Shown here: piece by piece, positions 13,522 through 58,005 of the stretch
How positions within the stretch are numbered: the first letter of the stretch is position 1
Layout: each line of letters opens with the position of its first letter
DNA from: Lytechinus pictus
Lineage: Eukaryota
Length of the DNA: 64,000 nucleotides
Assembly (NCBI RefSeq): GCF_037042905.1
Contig: NC_087252.1
Coordinates: 6,078,001-6,142,000, forward strand
Direction: 5' to 3'
Position numbers and translations under genes: made by a program
Notes under the pieces: model-generated
What the model was told of the DNA's origin: nothing
What the model saw: the letters and a program-made list of their open reading frames with translations, nothing else
The model's database searches: none

Positions 13522-14606
13522 GAAAAGTTACATAGGTATTTAAGTCATGGACGGAATTTTTTTCCTTGTCAAACTTTCCAGCCTTTGGTCCCCCTCCCTT
13601 TGGGGAAAGATTTCCGCCTATGATTTAAGTGATCATATCAGAGCTAAACCCAGAAAAAAAATCCTAAGAATAAAACAAATAAGAATTTAAGATTAATGTC
13701 TTCGATTTTTAATAATCCTTTTGATTCTTCACTTCTTAAGCATGTTAAAGGTGGTCGCATGAAAGGGAAATATGTCACCCATGCATTGTTGTGTACAAAT
13801 AGGGCAGGCAAGAAACCAAACAGTGCATACTACAGGAAAAACATATAAAGGGGAAGATAAGGAGAGGGAGAAAGGGGGAGAGGGGTGGAGTATAAAAAGT
13901 CGGCTTCCAACACACTTTTACACATTTTTTTTTACTCATTAATTAAAATAAACCTCGTGCATTCCTACTCATAGTGACCATGAAATTATACACATCTGAC
14001 CTTTGTGCTGCGTCTATCTTTGCATTAGACAGCTAAGCAAAACTATGATTGAGTCGACAAACCACCACCTCCCTATGAAGGGAAACTCATGAGCACACTT
14101 CTGTAATTGGAGAAGACTCAAGAACAACACGTTCTCTATATTTATCTTCTCATTTATCTTACCTTCATTCATCTTCATTTATTTTTTTTCCTCTCACCAA
14201 TGGTTAGCATTTTGCTCCCACATGACTGACTGTATATGAAAACTATAACTGGGAACATATTAGCTTTATGACGTGTTCAGATGATTAAGATGGAATATGA
14301 GAAGCTTGATAAATGTTCGTCTGGGCTTCATTTATTTGTTTTCTTTATTGTTTGTATTTTGTAAGCATGTTTAAATCATATTTATGGCTTGATGTGCTCA
14401 TTGACAATATCTTAAACCAACCAATCTCATTATTGTCTTGTAGTTTTTATTTATTCTTAGTTTTGTCCTTGTCTTCTTTTTCATCATTTTCATTATTTGA
14501 TTATTTTGATTTCAATAGCATTGTTTTCATCTCATCCAAAAATCATAATCACTGCCATCATTTTCATCAGTGGTGGTGGTGGTAGTGATAGTGGTATAAG
14601 TTGTAC

Positions 14607-14632
14607 TAGTAGTAGTAGTAGTGGTAGTAGTA

Positions 14633-14666
<34 letters not shown>

Positions 14667-14698
14667 AAGAAGTAGTAGTGGTAGTGGTAGTAGTAGTA

Positions 14699-14781
<83 letters not shown>

Positions 14782-25860: not shown

Positions 25861-25879
25861 AGTAGTAGTGGGAGTAGTA

Positions 25880-25962
<83 letters not shown>

Positions 25963-26042
25963 TTTAGTAGTAGTAGTAGTAGTAGTAATAGTAGTAGTAG
26001 TTGCAGCAACGGCAGTAGCGGTAGTAGTAGCAGCAGCAGTAT

Positions 26043-26080
<38 letters not shown>

Positions 26081-26157
26081 TAGGAGGAGTAGTAGTAGTA
26101 GTAGTAGTAGTAGAAGTAGTAGTAGTAGTAGTAGTTGTTGTAGTATTAGTAGTAGTT
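25861..26157. repeat. (AGT)n microsatellite with AGC variants
   Basis: Direct reading; explains ORFs 25798-26241. Confidence 0.97.
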
Positions 26158-29010: not shown

Positions 29011-29089
29011 CTGGTCACACCAAGGAAACTGAGTCCAGATCGACACAGCTATAATGTTATCGGTTGGTTGGATCTTCTTGAGTCTTGTC

Positions 29090-29790
29090 TGCCAGGAGCC
29101 TATTATTCATATTATTAAAAACCTTAATGTTCTCCAAGAGAAGTACGATCTTCCATCTCTACTAGATCTTCTGCAGCAAGGTTGCTCGTATATTACATGG
29201 AAGGAAAGAGTAAGACAGGCTGTGGAAAGTAGGGCCCTTGCATCCCTCTCCGAAGAAACCTCCCTCAAGTCGTCCCTTCTTCTGTTCCTTATTATTGACT
29301 TGGTGCTTCCTAATCATGTATTCCTGTCCGACATGTATCCTGCACATCTCCGGGTAGCCATCAATATGAAAGCTCAGCTTCTTACCAGCACTTATCTCAC
29401 CCAAAGTCGACTGTCTTTCAGTTTGTTATTGAATGTACTCATCTTAGAAATAATCTTCTAAAACATCTTCCAGAAGATGCCTTTAAAGTGCTCTCAAGCC
29501 TTTCAAATACAGACTCTTCATCTTCATGTCGCACAAACCAGACTTATCCTCCTTGTTGTCCTTGGCAATGTCTCGTATCAGTTTCCTGACTTTCATCCTG
29601 TTACTCTTCAATTTGTGTATGATATACATTTCTCAAGACAGCGCCTTGTTGATCAAGCTGCTGCAAACAGTGACTAATAATCAGCTTATTATTGTACTAT
29701 GATGTACTGCAACTCAAGGCTTGCAGTTCTCCGGTGAAAGGAGGAATTCAACACAGAAGAAGAAGGAGGAGGATGAAGAGGAAGAGGAGG
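29090..29790 (+). mobile_element. 5'-truncated, frameshifted 3' end of a non-LTR retrotransposon (CR1/L2-group RT ORF C-terminus)
   Basis: Translation has the C-terminal pattern LQEKYDLPSLLDLL..WKERVRQAV..KSSL..RVAINMKAQLLTSTYLTQ. In other frames it continues FVIECTHL and FVYDIHFSRQRL*, then a short UTR and a GAA/GGA-rich tail. Confidence 0.7.
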
Positions 29791-34928: not shown

Positions 34929-35118
34929 TATAGCTGCAAAGTAGGGGCAGGGGGTTTATCACCCCCCCCCCCCTATTTTGCAGCTCAGACCAAGCGATTA
35001 GATTTACTACTTGTCTAAGAATTGAGATACACATTGTTTGCAGCTTAATTATTGCAATGGGGGGGGGGTTATTTCGTACCCCTAGGCCTGGATCGGTCCT
35101 CCTTGTTTGCAGCTCTGC
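34929..35118. mobile_element. Possible decayed hAT-like MITE
   Basis: AGCTGCAAA ... TTTGCAGCTCTG inverted ends with internal C and G runs; no clear TSD. Confidence 0.35.
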
Positions 35119-37505
35119 TAATGATTACCTAAACCTTGGCGTGCTGATGGAATAGAACTCTACACAGCTGCATGGCTCGGGGCCTTACAGTGTGCTTGGA
35201 GCGTTATTCACACCGTTCTCATGAAGAGAACCCGTATAGAATGAACAACCAAAACGAAATAAATCTGTTTTTATTCGCGTACTACATGGTTTCTATTGCC
35301 AATGATACAGCCACAGCTAGTTTAGGGGCCTACTTTCCCATTCCATGCGACCTTAAAGATTTGAAGACCTCAAAAAACACCAAACAATCTGTGTCAATAA
35401 CACACAAAACTCATTACCATATTTTTACAATATTTCATAACTAATCCTGATCTGAAAATCTTAAGTTGTTGGTATTTTGATTAATATTTAACCAACCGTT
35501 TCGTTGGTACGAATTTTTCTATTTTCGGCCGACATAACCCTGCATGAGTTTCCTGTGGTGTATCGTGTCTGTATTACCTGGCTTATAAGTTTGTATTTTG
35601 TGTTGGTTGTTCAGGTGAAAATTTGAACCTGTCCAGTTTATTAAAAAGTAAATAAGATAACTACTGATGAACCTTTAATATTTTTGGTTCTTTAAAGATT
35701 GCCGATTCCGGTATTGAATATGTGCGTCAGTATCCATAAACTTCCTCATTTCTAATTCCTTTATCCCACATACCCTATATTAATCAGGACGCGAAATTAA
35801 CTAGGGTTCCACTTTATCGCCCGAGTCACAAATAAAAGGAGAACCGCTTTAAGATGTGATGAAAAAAAAAATAATCCTTTGCTAAGTATTCATTTAATCC
35901 GGATAATACTAAATCAAAATCGAGGTAATCTGAAATGATTTTCGGCTAAGAACCCTAAAATTCTGAATATGAAATCTAGGGACATCAAATTTGCAAATAT
36001 CAGGAATAAATGAATGTGTCTTGTTGCAGTAGGGTTAATGTTAGAAGTGCATATTGAATTCGGCCGAAAGAGTAATTGCAAGGAATACGAAAAAAAAGTT
36101 TAAGTTACTGTCTTTTTTTTTTTGTGCAAACTCTCTGTCTATCTTTCTCTCTCTCGCTCTAATTCTCAGATCTATACGGTACATACACACGTACGCACGG
36201 CGTCACACATAAAACTCATCATCCCCTTTCCACCGCTGGTTTTTTTTTTGTCTTTTTCTTCTTCTTCTTGTATTCCTCATTCTCCACTTCTAGTATGTAT
36301 TACTGGAAAAATGCTTTAAGATATGAAAATCTTTTGCTGTGTTTGCATCAAATCCGGATTATATATAATGAAAATCGAGATCCTTAAAAATGGCACCTGA
36401 ATTAGTAACCTAGAATTCCTAATATAAGCTGAAGGAAATCATGTTAGCAATCTCTCTGAGATTAATGATTTTTTTCGCTTTTTGGAAAGATTTGAATGAT
36501 GAAGATGGGCATTGGCAGATAGACCTAAACACGAAATAAGGGATACAACAGTTTCGATTACCATGTATTTTTCTCCCTATCATTTTTTCTTTCTTCTCTC
36601 TGTCTCTCTCTCAACAAACACACACATACGTCCTCACAAACACAAAAAGTTATCACTCTCATACCATCTATACATCTCTTTTTATTTGCCATGTTTGCCC
36701 TTCCCTCCTTCTCTCTCGGCCCCTCCCCCCCCCCTTCTCTCTCTCTCTCTCTCTCTGTCTTGTCACTGTCAATCTTCTTCCTCACCTCTCCAACAACTCC
36801 CTCTCCCCACAAAAAATAAATCAATCTCCCCTTTTTTTCTCGCCCCCGTTTTCTTTTTTGACCTATTTGTCTCTCCCTTTCTCTGTCTTTACCTCTCACT
36901 CATATCCATATTCTCTCTCACTACAACAGAGTCTAAATTTTCATTCATTTCCTTATATATATATCTCTCTCTTCTCTGCTCTTCTCATCAGCTAGGTCTA
37001 ACAATCTAGATCTAAGTAATTAATCTTCTCGACTGGCTGAGCCCGAAGTAGGATTAACTGGCTAGACTGAATGAGGCATAGGTAGACGTGTGACCATCTA
37101 AATACCTCTATTCCACGAGTCAAAATAATTAATACATTATGCATATCCAGGATGATTTGTTCATTTATACGTTTACGTATAATTTATTCAACATGTTCAA
37201 GTTTATTTAATCTTAAATAATTGGCAGTTCATTTGGCGTAAACTTATCTTTGATATACTCAATATACACAAGTATTTTCCTAGTATACCAATGAGATAGA
37301 AAACTATGAGGCGCCGAATGTACCAATATTATATAGAACAATTATTTGTTATATAATCATTATTTATTAAATAATAACTATTATTTATATATAATTTACA
37401 TTTTATTTGTAAATAACTACTATTATATAAAATATCATTTCTAATTATTTATATATAATTCCAAGTAATACTTCATTATTTGTAAATAATAATAGTTCGA
37501 CATTC

Positions 37506-37863
37506 CATTATTTATAAATAATAATTATTTGTTTTTCATTATTTATAAATAATGATTATTTGTTTTTCATTATTTACAAATAATGATTATTTGTTTTTCA
37601 TTATTTATAAATAATGATTATTTGTTTTTCATTATTTATATATAATGATTATTTGTTTTTCATTATTTATAAATAATGATTATTTGTTTTTCATTATTTA
37701 TAAATAATGATTATTTGTTTTTCATTATTTATAAATAATGATTATTTGTTTTTCATTATTTACAAATAATGATTATTTGTTTTTCATTATTTACAAATAA
37801 TGATTATTTGTTTTTCATTATTTATAAATAATGATTATTTGTTTTTCATTATTTATAAATAAT
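37506..37863 (+). repeat. 31-bp tandem array in left arm (11 units)
   Basis: GTTTTTCA recurs at 37531, 37562 ... 37841 (period 31). The common unit contains the 20-bp palindrome TCATTATTTATAAATAATGA. Confidence 0.95.
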
Positions 37864-39128
37864 TTGTTGAGTTTTCCATTATTTATAAATAATGATTATT
37901 TGTTAAATAATGAAAACGTCTACTTCATTATTTATAAATAATTTTTTCGAGTGCACCATTATTCTCATTATTTATAAATAATCATTATTTAATGTTCGAG
38001 TTTTCCATTATTTATAAATAAAGATTATTTGTTAAATAATGAAATATCTACTTCATTATTTATAAATAATAATTTTGTTTCAATATCCCATTATTTATAA
38101 ATAATCATTATTTATAAACAATTTTTACAGTTTGCCATTATATACAAATAATCATTATTTATATACAAATAACCATTATTTATTAAATAATGCCATTATT
38201 TATTAAATAATGCCATTATTTATTAAATAATGAAAACTCGCTATAACATGCAAATGTGGGACCGCCCATGATATGAATATTCATGATGCGATTTCCTTTT
38301 TCGTGATTTTTCTTCACAAATTTTTGTCCATTTCCTCTTCATAATGACATTTCTTGAAGCAATTTTCTAGGGATATGGTCTGATTGTAATATTCTTCATT
38401 TTCTATATAACTTCGTCTTCGTAGAAATATCAAAAAGTGTAATTTTATACGATTTTTCCTACAGTTCACAATCCCCATAGGCGCGCGTGTACGGTAGGGA
38501 CAACCGGTGAATCGACGGAGTGCTCTTCATCGAAATACTACGTTGGTTGGTCCCCGGAAGTGGCGGGCGGAATTTAGCCCGAATCCTCGATGGAAGTCGA
38601 TCAAGTGCATATGAGCTGAGAGAGTGAAATATCAGTGTACTTGTACAGGCCCTTCTACTTTTTATAAATATTTCTTGTTGCTTTTTTTTTTTGTTAAGTT
38701 AATTTTTCCTGGTGTAGAGATAAGTTTCAGTTCTAATAATGCACTTCAAATACATTTTGGAGTGTCTGTTTGAGGCGTTTGGGGCGATTTTACCCTGGCC
38801 CCAAAATGCTCGCAATGACAATACGGGGGCATGATGACCCCTAAATTTTAAAAAACTTATTTTTCTATTGAAAATTATCACAAAATTCACCAAAAGTGTG
38901 CACGAAAGCCTTCGTATTTCACTTTTAAAACTCCGAAAAGTGCCCAAATGACAAGCTTGGTCGCTTCGCTGTGTCGCTTTCAACTTGAGAACGTTTACGC
39001 GTCTGCTCCCCCCCCCCCCCCCCCCCCTCCTCCGAAAGAAATTCTGCATGTATACGGCCATGCTCTAAAGAGCCTGGCACATTGATTTATGTATACTTTC
39101 ATTTTCATTATTTTTATCTCATTATCAT

Positions 39129-39619
39129 CATGGCCTTACGCAGAATTTTTTCCGGGGGGGGGGGGGGGGTGGGGGGAGCAGGACGCGCGTAAACTTTCTC
39201 ATAAAAATCTTGAGAAAGCGAAGCGACCAAGCTTGTCATTTGAGCTTGGTCGCGTCGCTGTCTCGCTTTCAAGATTTTTTTGAGAAACTTTACGCGCGTC
39301 CTAGCTGCCCCCCCCCCCCCGGTAAAAATTCTGTGTAAGGCCATGATGATAATGTGATAAAAATAATGAAAATGAAAAGTACATATAAATCAATGTGCCA
39401 TATGCTCTTTTGAGCATGGCCGTTCACAGAATTACTTTCGGGGGGTGGGGGCAGACGCGTGTAAACGTTCTCAAGTTGAAAGCGAGACAGCGAAACGACA
39501 AAGCTTGTCATTTGGGCTTGGTCCCGTGGCTGTCTCGCTTTCAAGATTTTTTTGAGAAAGTTTACGCGCGTCATGCTCCGGCCCCGGCCCCCCTGGAAAA
39601 AATTATGCGTAAGGCCATG
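39129..39619. repeat. Core of foldback: two tandem ~205-217-bp mini-palindromes
   Basis: CATGGCC...GGCCATG units at 39129-39345 and 39415-39619, separated by a ~70-bp AT-rich spacer that recurs at 39620-39685 and, inverted, at 39063-39128. Confidence 0.85.
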
Positions 39620-40041
39620 TTGATAATGAGATAAAAATAATGAAAATGAAAGTATACATAAATCAATGTGCCAGGCTCTTTAGAGCATGGCCGTATACAT
39701 GCAGAATTTCTTTCGGAGGAGGGGGGGGGGGGAGCAGACGCGTAAACGTTCTCAAGTTGAAAGCGACACAGCGAAGCGACCAAGCTTGTCATTTGGGCAC
39801 TTTTCGGAGTTTTAAAAGTGAAATACGAAGGCTTTCGTGCACACTTTTGGTGAATTTTGTGATAATTTTCAATAGAAAAATAAGTTTTTTAAAATTTAGG
39901 GGTCATCATGCCCCCGTATTGTCATTGCGAGCATTTTGGGGCCAGGGTGAAATCGCCCCAAACGCCTCAAACAGACACTCCAAAATGTATTTGAAGTGCA
40001 TTATTAGAACTGAAACTTATCTCTACACCAGGAAAAATTAA

Positions 40042-40493
40042 TACCGTGTTTACACTTAATCGGCATTTGAATCGGCTCGCGGTTCTGAACCGTGAGCCGA
40101 TTCAGCATCGGCTTTTTCATAGCGTGTAAACGCGAGCAACTTGAATCGGCTCGCGGTTCAGAACCGGCAATTTGCACCACCAAAGTAGTAGGTTCTGAAC
40201 CGCGAGCCGATGCAGAATCGGCTTTTTTACTACGTGTAAACAGAAAGCCGATTCTGCACCGGCAATTTGTGCGCATTTCAATTACTTACCATTGTGACGT
40301 AATTGTAAGCGCACTGATCCAGCGTTGTCTTTATTATGACGTATATTGTAGGTATGCGTATATCATTTCAGATTTTTGCATCGGCTCGCGGTTCTGAACC
40401 GCGAGCTGTAACAACGTGTAAACGCAATCCAAATGCCGATTCTGCATCGGCATTTGGTTCAGAACCAATTGCCGATTAAGTGTAAACACGGTG
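40042..40493. mobile_element. 452-bp PIF/Harbinger-type MITE inserted in the right arm
   Basis: TSD TAA (40039-40041, 40494-40496). 24-bp TIR (T/C)ACCGTGTTTACACTTAATCGGCA. The left arm shows the empty site with a single TTA at 38699-38701. Confidence 0.93.
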
Positions 40494-41331
40494 TAACTTA
40501 ACAAAAAAAAAAAGCAACAAGAAATATTTATAAAAAGTAGAAGGGCCTGTACAAGTACACTGATATTTCACTCTCTCAGCTCATATGCACTTGATCGACT
40601 TCCATCGAGGATTCGGGCTAAATTCCGCCCGCCACTTCCGGGGACCAACCAACGTAGTATTTCGATGAAGAGCACTCCGTCGATTCACCGGTTGTCCCTA
40701 CCGTACACGCGCGCCTATGGGGATTGTGAACTGTAGGAAAAATCGTATAAAATTACACTTTTTGATATTTCTACGAAGACGAAGTTATATAGAAAATGAA
40801 GAATATTACAATCAGACCATATCCCTAGAAAATTGCTTCAAGAAATGTCATTATGAAGAGGAAATGGACAAAAATTTGTGAAGAAAAATCACGAAAAAGG
40901 AAATCGCATCATGAATATTCATATCATGGGCGGTCCCACATTTGCATGTTATAGCGAGTTTTCATTATTTAATAAATAATGGCATTATTTAATAAATAAT
41001 GGCATTATTTAATAAATAATGATTATTTGTATATAAATAATGATTATTTGTATATAATGGCAAACTGTAAAAATTGTTTATAAATAATGATTATTTATAA
41101 ATAATGGGATATTGAAACAAAATTATTATTTATAAATAATGAAGTAGATATTTCATTATTTAACAAATAATCTTTATTTATAAATAATGGAAAACTCGAA
41201 CATTAAATAATGATTATTTATAAATAATGAGAATAATGGTGCACTCGAAAAAATTATTTATAAATAATGAAGTAGACGTTTTCATTATTTAACAAATAAT
41301 CATTATTTATAAATAATGGAAAACTCAACAA

Positions 41332-41721
41332 ATTATTTATAAATAATGAAAAACAAATAATCATTATTTATAAATAATGAAAAACAAATAATCATTATTT
41401 GTAAATAATGAAAAACAAATAATCATTATTTATAAATAATGAAAAACAAATAATCATTATTTATAAATAATGAAAAACAAATAATCATTATTTATAAATA
41501 ATGAAAAACAAATAATCATTATTTGTAAATAATGAAAAACAAATAATCATTATTTATAAATAATGAAAAACAAATAATCATTATTTATAAATAATGAAAA
41601 ACAAATAATCATTATTTGTAAATAATGAAAAACAAATAATCATTATTTATAAATAATGAAAAACAAATAATCATTATTTATAAATAATGAAAAACAAATA
41701 ATCATTATTTATAAATAATGG
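41332..41721 (-). repeat. 31-bp tandem array in right arm (12 units)
   Basis: TGAAAAAC recurs with period 31, ending at 41354 ... 41695. Confidence 0.95.
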
Positions 41722-42166
41722 AATGTCGAACTATTATTATTTACAAATAATGAAGTATTACTTGGAATTATATATAAATAATTAGAAATGATATTTTATA
41801 TGATAGTAGTTATTTACAAATAAAATGTAAATTATATATAAATAATAGTTATTATTTAATAAATAATGATTATATAACAAATAATTGTTCTATATAATAT
41901 TGGTACATTCGGCGCCTCATAGAAAACATTATTATATTATTATACATCATTATGACGGAGAAGAATGTTAGCGTTGAAACTTGAAAGTTAACATTCAAAT
42001 ACTAGTAATGGCAAAGGGGATAAAAGTTACGATTGATCAAAATAGACTACTAGGATGAATGGATGGATTGAGACACTCAGACAGGAAATAATGAACGTCA
42101 CTTAAATATTTGTAAATAGAAAAAGATAACCACTGATACCATGTTGACATTTACCATTAAACAATT

Positions 42167-42432
42167 TGGTCCGTATTCGGAACTTTAACCACAGACTAAA
42201 GTTGTTGTTTAACCATGGGTAGGCAAACGTGACGCCAATCTCTATAATTAGATGATCAATGTATTATAACACGTCATCGGCAATACAATAATTTTCCTCA
42301 TCCTCGAAACATAGGAAAGATCCCAGTAAAGCCAGGATGAATTACATTGCATACACACACTTACAGCTTCCAATAATTTTAGCCCAGAGTTAGACCACGG
42401 TTGAGTTAAACTGGAGAACAGACTACGGAGCT
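42167..42432. mobile_element. Possible decayed Harbinger-type MITE
   Basis: TGGTCCGTATTC at left, GACTACGGAGC at right; AACCACAGACTAA / TTAGACCACGGTT subterminal motifs. Degenerate. Confidence 0.3.
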
Positions 42433-44630
42433 CATGGTTTAATAATGAACAGAAAATTATTTTATGCTAACCTATATTGACCTGAATGTTCATTTATTTT
42501 AATAAATAGAGTGTTAATCAAAACTGAGTTGAATGATAATCAATGTTGCGAGCAAACCTTATGGAAACCTATGGGATGAAGTCTGTAGTAAGATTGACTG
42601 TTGACGGAATGCACTGATTATAAACAGGATTAAGCTACCAAATTGGCCTCAATATTGAGGAGCTGCTTTCTAAGAAAAGGGACTTTTTTAAAAGAAAACT
42701 TGTCGCGCTCTTTTGGTACATAACTGGCTTTGATATCGAGTGCAGTCAAGTATGAAATTATATCCTATTGGGGCACCCCCCCCCCCATTCTACATACTGA
42801 ATATTTGTACATTTTGTCATCATCGAAGAAGCCCCCCACCCCACATTCGTCATGTTGTAACCCCAGGGAACCAGAAAATGCCCGAACGGATCTTAACAGG
42901 AAACTATGAATGCATTATTCAACATTAAGTTATGAGACGTGAACGACAAGGTAAATACGGGGAAAATCCCTAAATGAATGCGTAAAGTGACTGAGTAATA
43001 AAAGCCAGAAGGTGGTGACTTTCAAGATGGATGTTGCAATATTGCTTTAAAAGGATTAAGAGAGTCTGAATTTAGCTCAGAGGCCGACTTCCCAATGCAA
43101 TATAGGAAAGACGTATAATACGTCAACATTCTAAGATTGCCAAAGATCTTCATCCAAAAAGTGTCTAAACATGAAGGTGCTTCTTCTGTATATATATATA
43201 TATACAAAAACACACAGCATGTTTTGTTTTATCCAAAGGGGTCTGTTAACTTCTGAAGAAAAAAACCCGAAAATTTGAGGGTTATTATTTTACTCTTTTT
43301 CTTTTCGGTGTAAAAGCAACAAAGCCTGAACTGTAAGAACGAGATGGAAGTCAGTAACATGGGGACCAATGATCGAGTTTTGGAATGCACCTTGGCTGAG
43401 TGATAGCACCCAGCGGGTGTGAGAGGGTGCGTGTGTGGGCGCGCGCGCGTGTGTGTAGGCTGATAGTGACAATATGCACACCTGAATGAATGATATCTGA
43501 TTCAGGCACGTCTGCAAAGTTATTTTAAACAAAATAGGAATAATGAAAGTTTCATTATGTACCAATTCCATTGTGGATATTGCTAAGAAGTATAACGTCT
43601 AGAAGACATGAGGTAGCCTGCCAACATGTATATAGATTAGCTTTGATTCAACTTTAAATATCCTGTACAGAGGCGTATTCGAGGCACGTATTACCTTAGA
43701 CCACACGATCTAAATTGGAAATCAACGCTTCAGTAATCATTAATAACTTACGTGTCTCAGAGTAATTGAAACCCGCTAGGATTTTCGTAACTGGATTTTT
43801 CAGGGATTTCGGAAGACACCAAGTCGTTTCAGAGTTTAAAGATCACTTTGGTTTCTTTGGCTTCAAATAGCTGAAACTTTGCATTAACTGTTCACTTCAT
43901 TAATAAGCTAATATCTAAAAAAAATGATAACATGCAAGAGCATTAATAGCATTACTTAGCAATGCCCTTTGCGGAGGTAATTTGATTCTTATTACAATCA
44001 TGCTTATAGCGCTTATTTCACAATACAAATGACAGAAAGAAGTAGAGATTAGTGTAATCTATCTCGTTCCTATCGTTCACACATGATTTTGAATGTAAGG
44101 AATCCAAGAAACGGTTTCAGACTTCCCTTTTCTCCTTTCTTAAACGTACTCTCCAGCAAACTGAATTGTCCTAGAAAGATCAACTAATAAACTCGACAAG
44201 GGTAATGCCCAAGAAAGAGGCTATTAACATTAATAACAATTTCAAGCATTTAGAATATACGACAATCCGTGAGGAAAAAGAAGTTTTGGAGTGAAAACAT
44301 GGAGCACAAGGGGGCCAAATAAGACATATAGGAGCAGCCTTATAGAGAGAGGAACGGTATGAAATAAATATGCATGGGATCATATCTGGAGGCAGACTTG
44401 TGTATTGATGTTACTACAACTGGGCGAATAGACCCTCGGGGTTTAGTCATATCCAAACATATTCTCCTATTTATATATTCCCCTGCCTCGCATGTGAAAT
44501 TGTTTGTCTCGGGTTTCTTTCGTAATGTCGAACGACAGATTTAGGGCTCGTTCACATACAAGAGCTTGGTAGACGCCAAAGAACCGAAACATAAAGACAT
44601 GAGTAGTGTGTAAGACAATAGGGATTAAAC

Positions 44631-44632
<2 letters not shown>

Positions 44633-44720
<88 letters not shown>
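44633..44720. repeat. (TA)n microsatellite
   Basis: Direct reading. Confidence 0.98.
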
Positions 44721-56344: not shown

Positions 56345-56515
56345 GAAGAAAGAAAGGAAGGAAGGAAGGAAGGAAGGAAGGAAGGAAGGAAGGAAGGAAG
56401 GAAGGAAGGAAGGAAGGAAGGAAGGAAGGAAGGAAGGAAGGAAGGAAGGAAGGAAGGAAGGAAGGAAGGAAGGAAGGAAGGAAGGAAGGAAGGAAGGAAG
56501 GAAGGAAGGAAGGAA

Positions 56516-56612
<97 letters not shown>

Positions 56613-56623
56613 GAAGGAAGGAA

Positions 56624-56700
<77 letters not shown>

Positions 56701-56720
56701 GAAGAAAGAAAGAAAAAAAA
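56345..56720. repeat. (GGAA)n/(GAAA)n compound microsatellite
   Basis: Direct reading; explains the RKEG/RKKE ORFs in all three frames. Confidence 0.98.
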
Positions 56721-58005
56721 AGAAATACAGAAAGAAAGAAAAAGAGAAATTGAATTAATGAGAAAGAAAGGAGAGAGGGGGATTGGGGGAGAGAGTGAGG
56801 AGGGATCGATACTGACCTCTCTTACTTATACTTTCAAATTAGAATTCCCTTCATTCTCTTTCGTGTACGAAACACACCAAGCCGGACGCATCGGGCTACT
56901 ATCCTGTCAGACACTCCACTGGTTTTGCCGTGATGGCGAATATATATTTTTGGCACTGTCTTGCTATTTCCACGTGTTTTATTAACGTATGTGTCTTCAA
57001 CTATGTCAAACAGGATACATTTATGTTCAGGCACGCCATCCTGTACATCTCAAATAATGTAGTAGTGCCAGGGAAATATAAATACGAAATATATAATTGG
57101 GTTGGAATGTGACTGAGAGGGGGGTAGTCTTCAAGCACAGACTCATTTTTGACACTTCAACCAAAAACAGCTAGGTCTAGAGTAAAGACTATTATAGACG
57201 CCAAATACCCTGTCTGTGTAGAGCCAGCCACAGTACATAGTGAATCTAGTCTCACTTTTTCAGACTCTGCATTATGCAATATGTGAATTGAGAAAACCAA
57301 GGGTCTGCACCTGCAGACTAGGGTGAGGGCCCAGCCCGAATCTAGCCGGATAAAACACAATAGAGAGACCGACTATCAATCAACAATTTACATTGATGAC
57401 CATCCGTTGTATGCTGTGGTACAGGCACTCCAAAGAAAACTTCTTTAGAAAAATCAACGCTATTTACGTTATTTCGAAAAGATCATCATCTGTCGGTTTC
57501 GAGTCGGTTGTTGTGGGTATAAAGCATATAATTCATGGTAAATATTATATTCTACATCATACATGTATTAAGAACTCGGATGTTGATCAATCGAACTTAT
57601 ATAATGAAGCATCTAGCAAAGTTGGGTTGTTGTTTTTCTTCACATCTCAAGTTCAATGCCAAAATAAGCGGTTTAACCAAAATCCCTTCCCTCTTTGTCC
57701 ACACCCAAATAGCATGCTTAGATTTCATTTAGCACATATCAATACGAATTAAAGTAATTACTAAGTGTCTATCATTGCATAATTGATATCTTTAATCCAT
57801 ATATTGAACATTTCAACAAACATTTATTGTTGAACTTTGTGTCACTATTATTTCAAATTTCGTTAAATTTAGGGATGGATTTTTCCTTCAAAGCGAATTT
57901 CCCGTGATATCGACAAGGGGAAAGAGCCCTCCACGACGCAAGATGGCTCCCTTCACTTAAACTGCTATGAAGGCATTGAGGATGTGTATAAAATGTGATA
58001 TTTGG

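Follow-up and report, generated by a model that had tools for sequence, protein, structure and literature searches.

The DNA analysed here comprises 64,000 nucleotides of Lytechinus pictus (contig NC_087252.1, positions 6,078,001 to 6,142,000); this whole stretch is called the window, and all coordinates refer to it. At 37305-41921 it contains an inverted-repeat structure of 4,617 bp, which is almost wholly its own mirror image. An earlier note, made from the sequence alone, had taken this structure for a non-autonomous foldback transposon, and the extent given there was right to the base. The element is almost certainly a real, gene-less and non-autonomous transposon of the foldback type with terminal inverted repeats (TIRs); the lack of a coding region, the multi-copy family and the alignment of the two arms all agree with the earlier proposal. 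Most likely it would be mobilised in trans by an IS3EU/GingerRoot transposase, with a probability of about 0.7, an assignment that was read from its ends only.

The element is situated in intergenic DNA or in a long intron with only short exons, and from the frames scanned around it no bearing on a host gene is known. A Pfam comparison of 134 of the 201 complexity-filtered open frames of at least 58 amino acids, namely those from 22161 onward (22161-63622), did not yield any match.

Inverted arms with an outer and an inner domain

The left arm (37305-39127) and the right arm (39620-41921) were compared in a global alignment, which revealed 7 substitutions in 1,815 aligned columns and a perfect terminal match of 119 bp. 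Arms of about 1.8 kb with few substitutions had been described before, and all three differences that had been cited as examples were found again (Table 1). Six mismatches fell into the terminus and the outer domain (926 matches), one into the 718 columns of the inner domain (717 matches), and none into the outer part of the innermost unit (165 matches); the inner part of this unit had 86 matches and 13 mismatches in 99 columns. In the element, perfect inverted matching extended over at least 400 bp at its longest, whereas 20 of 20 mononucleotide shuffles reached 12-16 bp, and a range of 12-90 bp was obtained for 11 other stretches of 4.6 kb from the window. The control match of 90 bp is probably a (TA)n run.

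The division of each arm into an AT-rich outer domain with tandem repeats and a GC-richer inner domain, which had also been proposed earlier, was verified, the GC contents being 14% in the outer domain and 41% in the inner part. In the left outer domain, a palindrome of 16-18 bp, CATTATTTA-TAAATAATG, is found 25 times when up to 3 mismatches are allowed, and the perfect 18-mer occurs 7 times in the left arm and 10 times in the right arm. The 16-bp palindrome is not present in the remaining 59 kb of the window. One palindrome and a further half-site make up the regular 31-bp unit, of which arrays with 11 copies (left) and 12 copies (right) are formed. These palindrome arrays presumably serve as secondary transposase sites, and the unrepeated 36-bp termini presumably represent the cleavage site and the primary transposase site. 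The inner domain consists of 718 bp of noncoding sequence. Long modular inverted arms of 1.8 kb with 31-bp tandem arrays and an inner domain are in accordance with the foldback class. In line with the earlier statement that the element lacks an open reading frame, Pfam yielded no match for any of its 18 complexity-filtered frames of at least 58 amino acids. A search of 35000-44000 against Rfam was also without a match, and a second copy of any module of the element was not found elsewhere in the 64-kb window.

The right arm is about 480 bp longer than the left arm, which is accounted for by a nested element of 452 bp together with three duplicated bases (40042-40496) and by one extra 31-bp unit. 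In comparison to the uninterrupted left arm, the nested element and the duplicated TAA add 455 bases. It is a MITE (miniature transposable element with inverted repeats) that is predicted to fold on its own. Harbinger elements prefer TAA targets. The TAA duplication, the short TIRs, the internal palindromic repeats and the lack of an open-reading-frame match are shared with PIF/Harbinger MITEs, whereas the outermost base of the nested MITE differs between its two ends. By its 3-bp duplication, which is the canonical length for Harbinger (PMC12730594), it is PIF/Harbinger-like. A TA duplication was considered and rejected, because it would not restore the left-arm sequence. Neither a second copy of the nested MITE nor a transposase was seen in the window, and its terminal motif had no match in metagenome contigs.

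Boundaries of the element and its other copies

The window sequence alone leaves the boundary ambiguous, because it permits several perfect duplications: one of 6 bp if the ends are symmetric, one of 4 bp if both are drawn one base longer, one of 2 bp if they are drawn three bases shorter, and those of 7-9 bp if the ends are asymmetric. Contigs from four public runs (X1, X2, X3 and X7) were aligned to 41755-43600 of the window, and the left flank was outside that stretch. The four runs were used from 13 runs sharing element words, among 23 runs; X8-X13, which had small word shares, were left out. X1 stems from an organism coded A and X7 from organism C; X2 and X3 stem from the same species, coded organism B, and may share copies. 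The counts of loose ends rest on 16 of 140 rows, and all such figures apply among the matches listed.

Contigs of other copies aligned through 41921 and then continued with unrelated sequence (at least one in X1, at least 7 in X2 and at least 10 in X3). The X1 contig was at least 99% identical up to 41921, and its next base differed from that of the window. In the single X7 contig the alignment likewise stopped at 41921. Further contigs left the window at 41922, the first flank base being G as in the copy studied here (at least 5 in X2 and at least 9 in X3). Because the contigs of other copies diverge at 41921/41922, the element reads TATGAGG..CCTCATA and its duplication is GAAAAC, the only perfect duplication for the boundary 37305/41921. 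The flanking direct repeat mentioned in the earlier note was thereby found as a perfect 6-bp target-site duplication at a boundary set by other copies. Dispersed copies at unrelated sites, with at least 32 contigs in X1-X3 exiting into other flanks, are a further feature of the foldback class. A 2-bp AT duplication with GAG ends was rejected, because other copies align through 41921; 7-9-bp duplications with asymmetric ends were discarded as other copies continue to this position, and an 8-bp duplication with one mismatch was rejected on the same boundary evidence.

The first flank base was G in 14 of 31 loose ends, compared with a background of 18-19% (P = 4e-4 at 18% G), and in 9 of 19 loose ends in X3 alone (P = 0.003). 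The target of the copy studied here is G-N4-C, and the G excess fits such a target, but X2 and X3 may share copies. Several organism-B contigs stopped aligning already at 41906-41907, about 14 bases short of the terminus, which suggests a subfamily with a variant end.

In total, 129 contigs in X2 and 222 contigs in X3 matched 41755-43600, mostly with identities of 90-95% or below 90%. The summed contig depth at 41817-41878, which is not a copy number, was 706 in X2 and 10,214 in X3, compared with only 8.5 and 68 in the flank, and it was read as tens of element copies or more in organism B. A flank contig of organism B differed from window positions 41946-42275 at 27 letters and had 27 gap columns; therefore, organism B is a relative and not the source of the window. 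An 865-nt X2 contig matched the flank from 41946 on, starting at its position 410, and its first 409 nt could not be aligned to the element end. As judged from the right flank, this suggests that the insertion site is empty in organism B. Two further features of this flank were observed in organism-B contigs. The 63 bases at 42276-42338 are missing from the flank contigs of X2 and X3, which have 4 letters instead, and two other repeats of high copy number have their short cores at 42366-42401 and 43427-43456, with loose ends to the left and to the right.

X1 and X7 contain the element end with an identity of at least 99% and the flank without cover, and two other runs of the X1 sample carry next to no element words. 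Host DNA at low coverage, contamination and horizontal transfer are all conceivable for these matches. Low-coverage host DNA is the simplest reading, and it is very unlikely that the near-identical ends in organisms A and C reflect horizontal transfer and not DNA of the same host. That the flank lacks cover in X1 and X7, as it does past 42436 in X2 and X3, cannot be taken as a sign that it is absent. The exact terminal motif had no match in metagenome, prokaryote-genome and viral contigs, and the unit-junction motif had no match in prokaryote genomes.

The centre of the palindrome

The earlier note had placed a distinct core of about 490 bp between the arms and had compared the layout with elements that have a variable middle. 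This part of the description could not be upheld, because the 492 bp at 39128-39619 are built from a unit of about 270 bp that also forms the inner ends of the arms. The centre is made of three copies of this unit (M1, M2 and M3), and the separate variable middle domain of the foldback class is missing. The units are separated by an 11-bp linker; M1 is inverted and closes the left arm, while M2 and M3 are direct and open the right arm. The unit itself is an imperfect palindrome, with 190 columns matching its own reverse complement. One linker is inverted on the left and three are direct from 39233 on, so that the orientation flips between 38945 and 39233, and some 20 bp ahead of 39233 the sequence of M1 turns from "start-type" into "end-type". 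Taken together, the linker flip and the sequence switch in M1 identify the stem-loop at 39223-39253 as the true turn-round point. The unit (copies within 38955-39785) has long inverted ends and a flanking 11-bp direct repeat, and it may be an old MITE, with its target duplication seeding the tandem copies; its phase is not fixed.

Near the axis the mismatches between the arms rise in one step from 7 in 1,815 to 13 in 99 columns (0.4% to 13%; Fisher P = 5e-13). The outer part of the unit has 155 ungapped columns, in which M1 and M3 showed no private substitution and M2 showed 19. In the 96 inner columns M1, M2 and M3 had 5, 4 and 8 private changes, respectively. The divergence step at the centre shows that the palindrome is older than the arm identity implies. 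It suggests that the arms were homogenised, repeatedly or once, after the palindrome had arisen, and that the homogenisation ended at 39127/39620, about 250 bp from the axis. The element had been called young; this is likely for the present copy, but the arm identity gives no proof of it, because the centre indicates homogenisation after the origin. The left-arm base at 41802 is found in the contigs of X1 and X7 and in most of the depth of X2 and X3. The right-arm base at this position is probably derived, and the arm-specific changes probably arose later.

Folding of the central 941 nt with DNA parameters resulted in -467 kcal/mol with 87% of the bases paired, closing via M1:M3 and via M2 on itself; pairing of M1 with M2 was an alternative predicted fold. 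From the earlier proposal of a very long hairpin or cruciform, the first part is supported by this prediction, in that a single strand could plausibly form a long branched hairpin. In contrast, a full cruciform is doubtful, given the divergence of the 492-bp centre and the 455-bp insertion in one of the arms. A cruciform begins to extrude at its centre, and spacers and mismatches disfavour this. According to a review, replication forks in eukaryotic cells no longer stalled frequently when a 52-bp spacer was present, and with a spacer of 280 bp, repeats of 6 kb were stable in wild-type yeast (PMC7999016). The diverged centre of the element probably tempers structure formation.

Table 1. Coordinates of the element, its modules and its flanking duplication in the window.
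Feature	Position	Strand	Remarks
Left target-site duplication, GAAAAC	37299..37304	+	Boundary from other copies
Left terminus, 36 bp, unrepeated, starts TATGAGG	37305..37340	+	At least 99% conserved in X1 and X7 contigs
Left outer domain	37341..38236	+	11 regular 31-bp units at ~37506-37847, degenerate units on both sides
Left inner domain	38237..38954	+	Non-repetitive, noncoding, ends in inverted copy of 11-bp linker; 1 substitution in 718 columns vs right arm; no Pfam or Rfam match
Unit M1, inverted copy of ~270-bp quasi-palindromic unit	38955..39232	-	Outer part equals M3 except for a G-run, inner ~105 bp diverged
Unhomogenised centre, 492 bp	39128..39619	.	Inner M1, whole M2 and inner M3; 13/99 mismatches vs 7/1,815 outside
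Turn-round point	39223..39253	.	11-bp stem and 9-nt loop between M1 and M2; linker orientation switches
Unit M2, extra diverged tandem copy of ~270-bp unit	39244..39504	+	19 private substitutions in 155 outer columns
Unit M3, right-arm partner of M1	39516..39785	+	
Right inner domain	39786..40957	-	Split by nested MITE
Nested palindromic MITE, 452 bp	40042..40493	.	24-bp near-perfect inverted ends, internal palindromic repeats; TAA duplicated (40039-40041, 40494-40496); absent from left arm
Right outer domain	40958..41885	-	12 regular 31-bp units, one more than left
Right terminus, ends CCTCATA	41886..41921	-	Other-copy contigs exit window at 41921 or 41922
Right target-site duplication, GAAAAC	41922..41927	+	Direct repeat matching left copy
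Three substitutions cited in the earlier note	37424/41802, 38173/41022, 38791/39949		Arm comparison

Elsewhere in the window, long microsatellites are present, i.e., (TA)44 at 44633-44720, (AAGA)101 at 56346-56749, (AGT)61 at 14599-14781 and (AGT)99 at 25861-26156. An open frame of 142 amino acids at 29033-29458 (+) had no Pfam match; by its appearance, we take it to resemble the tail of an ORF2 remnant of a long interspersed nuclear element.

Putative mobilisation, rival explanations and known systems

The ends of the element point to IS3EU and GingerRoot, which are one lineage. IS3EU elements always have TA..TA termini and usually 6-bp target-site duplications (PMC10045372), and for GingerRoot 6-bp duplications, TA..TA termini in 72 of 77 copies and GC-rich targets were described (PMC6839031). 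The element has TA..TA termini (TATGAGG..CCTCATA), and a 6-bp target duplication was found for this one copy. Several points weigh against the assignment. It rests on two short features, and hAT6 transposons also make 6-bp duplications. Neither the Pfam comparison of the 18 internal frames nor a search of three contig collections with the terminus revealed a transposase or an autonomous partner. The arms of 1.8 kb are much longer than the TIRs of 100-150 bp published for GingerRoot (PMC6839031), and bases three to five are TGA and not the YGG of the rust IS3EU ends, which are TAYGG (PMC12730594). One copy only was seen with both flanks, so that the 6 bp rest on a single copy and may not be the rule of the family, and the 14 of 31 ends at 41922 could represent a subfamily that is one base longer. 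The support for a multi-copy family is lessened by the facts that X2 and X3 are one species, that the summed depth is no copy number and that the loose ends come from 16 of 140 rows. Among the contigs examined, which cover 41755-43600, no read or contig spanned the whole element. The homogenisation model is based on one copy, and the data would be explained equally well if one arm had recently been re-synthesised from the other in a single event.

If the IS3EU/GingerRoot assignment is correct, the element would be a non-autonomous cut-and-paste DNA transposon that is moved by an integrase-like DDE transposase supplied in trans. The transposase would cut at the 36-bp termini, may bind the 18-bp palindrome arrays of the outer domains as secondary sites, and would pair both ends and insert them with a 6-bp stagger and a bias to G at the first target base. 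Subterminal repeats of Muta1 were shown to be transposase binding sites (PMC5499845), and the repeats of Galileo were reported as transposase sites (PMC3573991). With regard to its history, a longer element might have lost its internal part, and one long end might have come to face its own copy. The short inverted repeat that separates two 270-bp units could be the place where the orientation switched, either by fold-back synthesis or by annealing in gap repair, which would lead to the same product. In yeast mutants, short inverted repeats of 5-9 bp with 3-12-bp spacers drive palindromic duplication (review PMC7999016). Copying between the arms would have followed, reaching to about 250 bp from the axis, with divergence of the central 492 bp in the same period. 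The 7 substitutions, the difference of one unit in the 31-bp arrays and the Harbinger-like MITE in the right arm would date from the time after the last copying event. The element is selfish DNA. The full scenario of a gene-less IS3EU/GingerRoot foldback lineage in this animal, in which one long end faces its mirror image, which originated through fold-back at a short inverted repeat in its interior, and the arms of which are kept near-identical by repeated conversion sparing a central loop of about 0.5 kb, is put forward tentatively and falls somewhat short of even odds.

The main rival is a mobilisation of the same foldback by a hAT6-type transposase, i.e., by a hAT lineage that makes 6-bp duplications, which is regarded as unlikely. 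The hAT ends YA..TR are fitted by TA..TA, and subterminal repeats are common in hATs, but hAT ends have a purine at the third base, and the element has TAT, which is the TAY pattern of IS3EU. The 6-bp duplication agrees with the length given for hAT6 (PMC12730594), whereas hAT TIRs usually have 10-25 bp and are accompanied by 8-bp duplications (PMC3942097); a description of hAT6 termini was not found in the literature searched. Slightly less probable still is a foldback of the Mutator/TU/FB type in which the ends are slightly asymmetric and 9 bp (or 7-8 bp) are duplicated, or which has C..G ends and a 4-bp duplication. Most foldbacks were assigned to Mutator (PMC4079207), and the site permits perfect duplications of 9, 8 and 7 bp with the right end at 41918-41920, and of 4 bp with both ends one base longer. 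However, the 7-9-bp readings require asymmetric termini, and other copies match through 41921 and diverge thereafter, including the 99%-identical X1 copy with its different next base. The 8-10-bp duplication typical of Mutator-type foldbacks (Tetris, FB, Muta1) would place the right end at 41918-41919, but other copies reach 41921. The 7-8-bp duplication of the P superfamily (Galileo) is obtained only with asymmetric ends, which is contradicted by other copies. Polinton/Maverick elements combine a 6-bp duplication with AG termini (PMC6839031), but the ends are TA..TA here.

A passive inverted duplication of a single transposon end by fold-back repair, which never moved as a unit, would be in line with the short stem and short loop of the turn-round point, a form that primes fold-back duplication, and with the fact that no second full-length copy was seen. 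It is very improbable, because both ends stop exactly at the family terminus, the flanks are unrelated and a perfect 6-bp direct repeat is present, while a local fold-back would mirror flank DNA or yield no direct repeat. An artefact of assembly or library, namely a mirrored read, is hardly credible. No spanning read was seen, which would allow for it, but the arms differ by the nested element with its own duplication, by one repeat unit and by 7 substitutions, and the centre is 13% different. In addition, other copies carry the left-arm base at 41802, and a family terminus with a target duplication is not where a mirrored read would stop. What speaks most strongly against such a read is the nested MITE, which is present with its own duplication in one arm only.

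Mobilisation by an IS3EU/GingerRoot transposase is thus preferred. If the IS3EU assignment is true, the element would represent another independent origin of foldbacks, which would support the view that DNA transposons acquire long arms laden with repeats by convergence. In the full scenario of a foldback lineage, the array of the 18-bp palindrome would be the first candidate for a binding site of an IS3EU transposase, and the family would be a many-copy natural test of palindrome conversion. With a minimal end and a palindrome that is clearly repeated, the element lends itself to tests of transposase binding. In addition, the step in arm divergence from 0.4% to 13% near the axis means that arm identity cannot be used to date such insertions.

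The foldback build was described mainly in the Mutator and P superfamilies (PMC4079207, PMC5499845). An IS3EU element of this build was not found in the literature searched, and Repbase, Dfam or supplements of papers may already hold the family. IS3EU annotations appear in the genome table of a sea urchin (PMC11316814). IS3EU has been linked to tandem repeats in the oyster, with two satellites (PMC8268682), and in Hydractinia, and was described as largely unexplored in structure and function (both PMC11934779).

The earlier note had compared the element with the sea-urchin TU elements (for which see Liebermann et al. 1983) and the Drosophila FB elements, and by their general description the modular arms with outer tandem repeats and a unique inner part are indeed alike. 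TU1 has an 8-bp duplication, arms of about 840 bp and 15-bp repeats, and Drosophila FB has a 9-bp duplication. In contrast, the duplication of the element is 6 bp long, its arms of 1.8 kb contain 31-bp units that include an 18-bp palindrome, and a unique middle is lacking. Its ends and its duplication match IS3EU/GingerRoot instead, while most foldbacks are found in Mutator or P (PMC4079207, PMC5499845). With IS3EU/GingerRoot it shares the TA..TA termini with a TAY start, the 6-bp duplication and a hint of a G/C-rich target, but it lacks a transposase and an internal region, and its 1.8-kb arms with tandem arrays differ from the 100-150-bp TIRs of GingerRoot (PMC6839031). Tetris of Drosophila virilis is likewise noncoding and has TIRs of up to about 1.7 kb, which are composed of a terminal part, an outer domain with tandem repeats and an inner domain; as compared by description only, it differs by 8-10-bp duplications, for which Mutator was suggested, by repeats of about 220 bp and by a separate middle domain (PMC4079207). 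Galileo has 7-bp duplications, a P-type transposase and TIRs of up to about 1.26 kb, unlike the element. Its 2-TIR derivatives resemble the element in being non-autonomous, in having two long TIRs and in the different numbers of tandem repeats in the arms, and also for Galileo a lengthening of the TIRs by recruitment of internal sequence was described, conversion was proposed, and little or no middle is present (PMC3573991).

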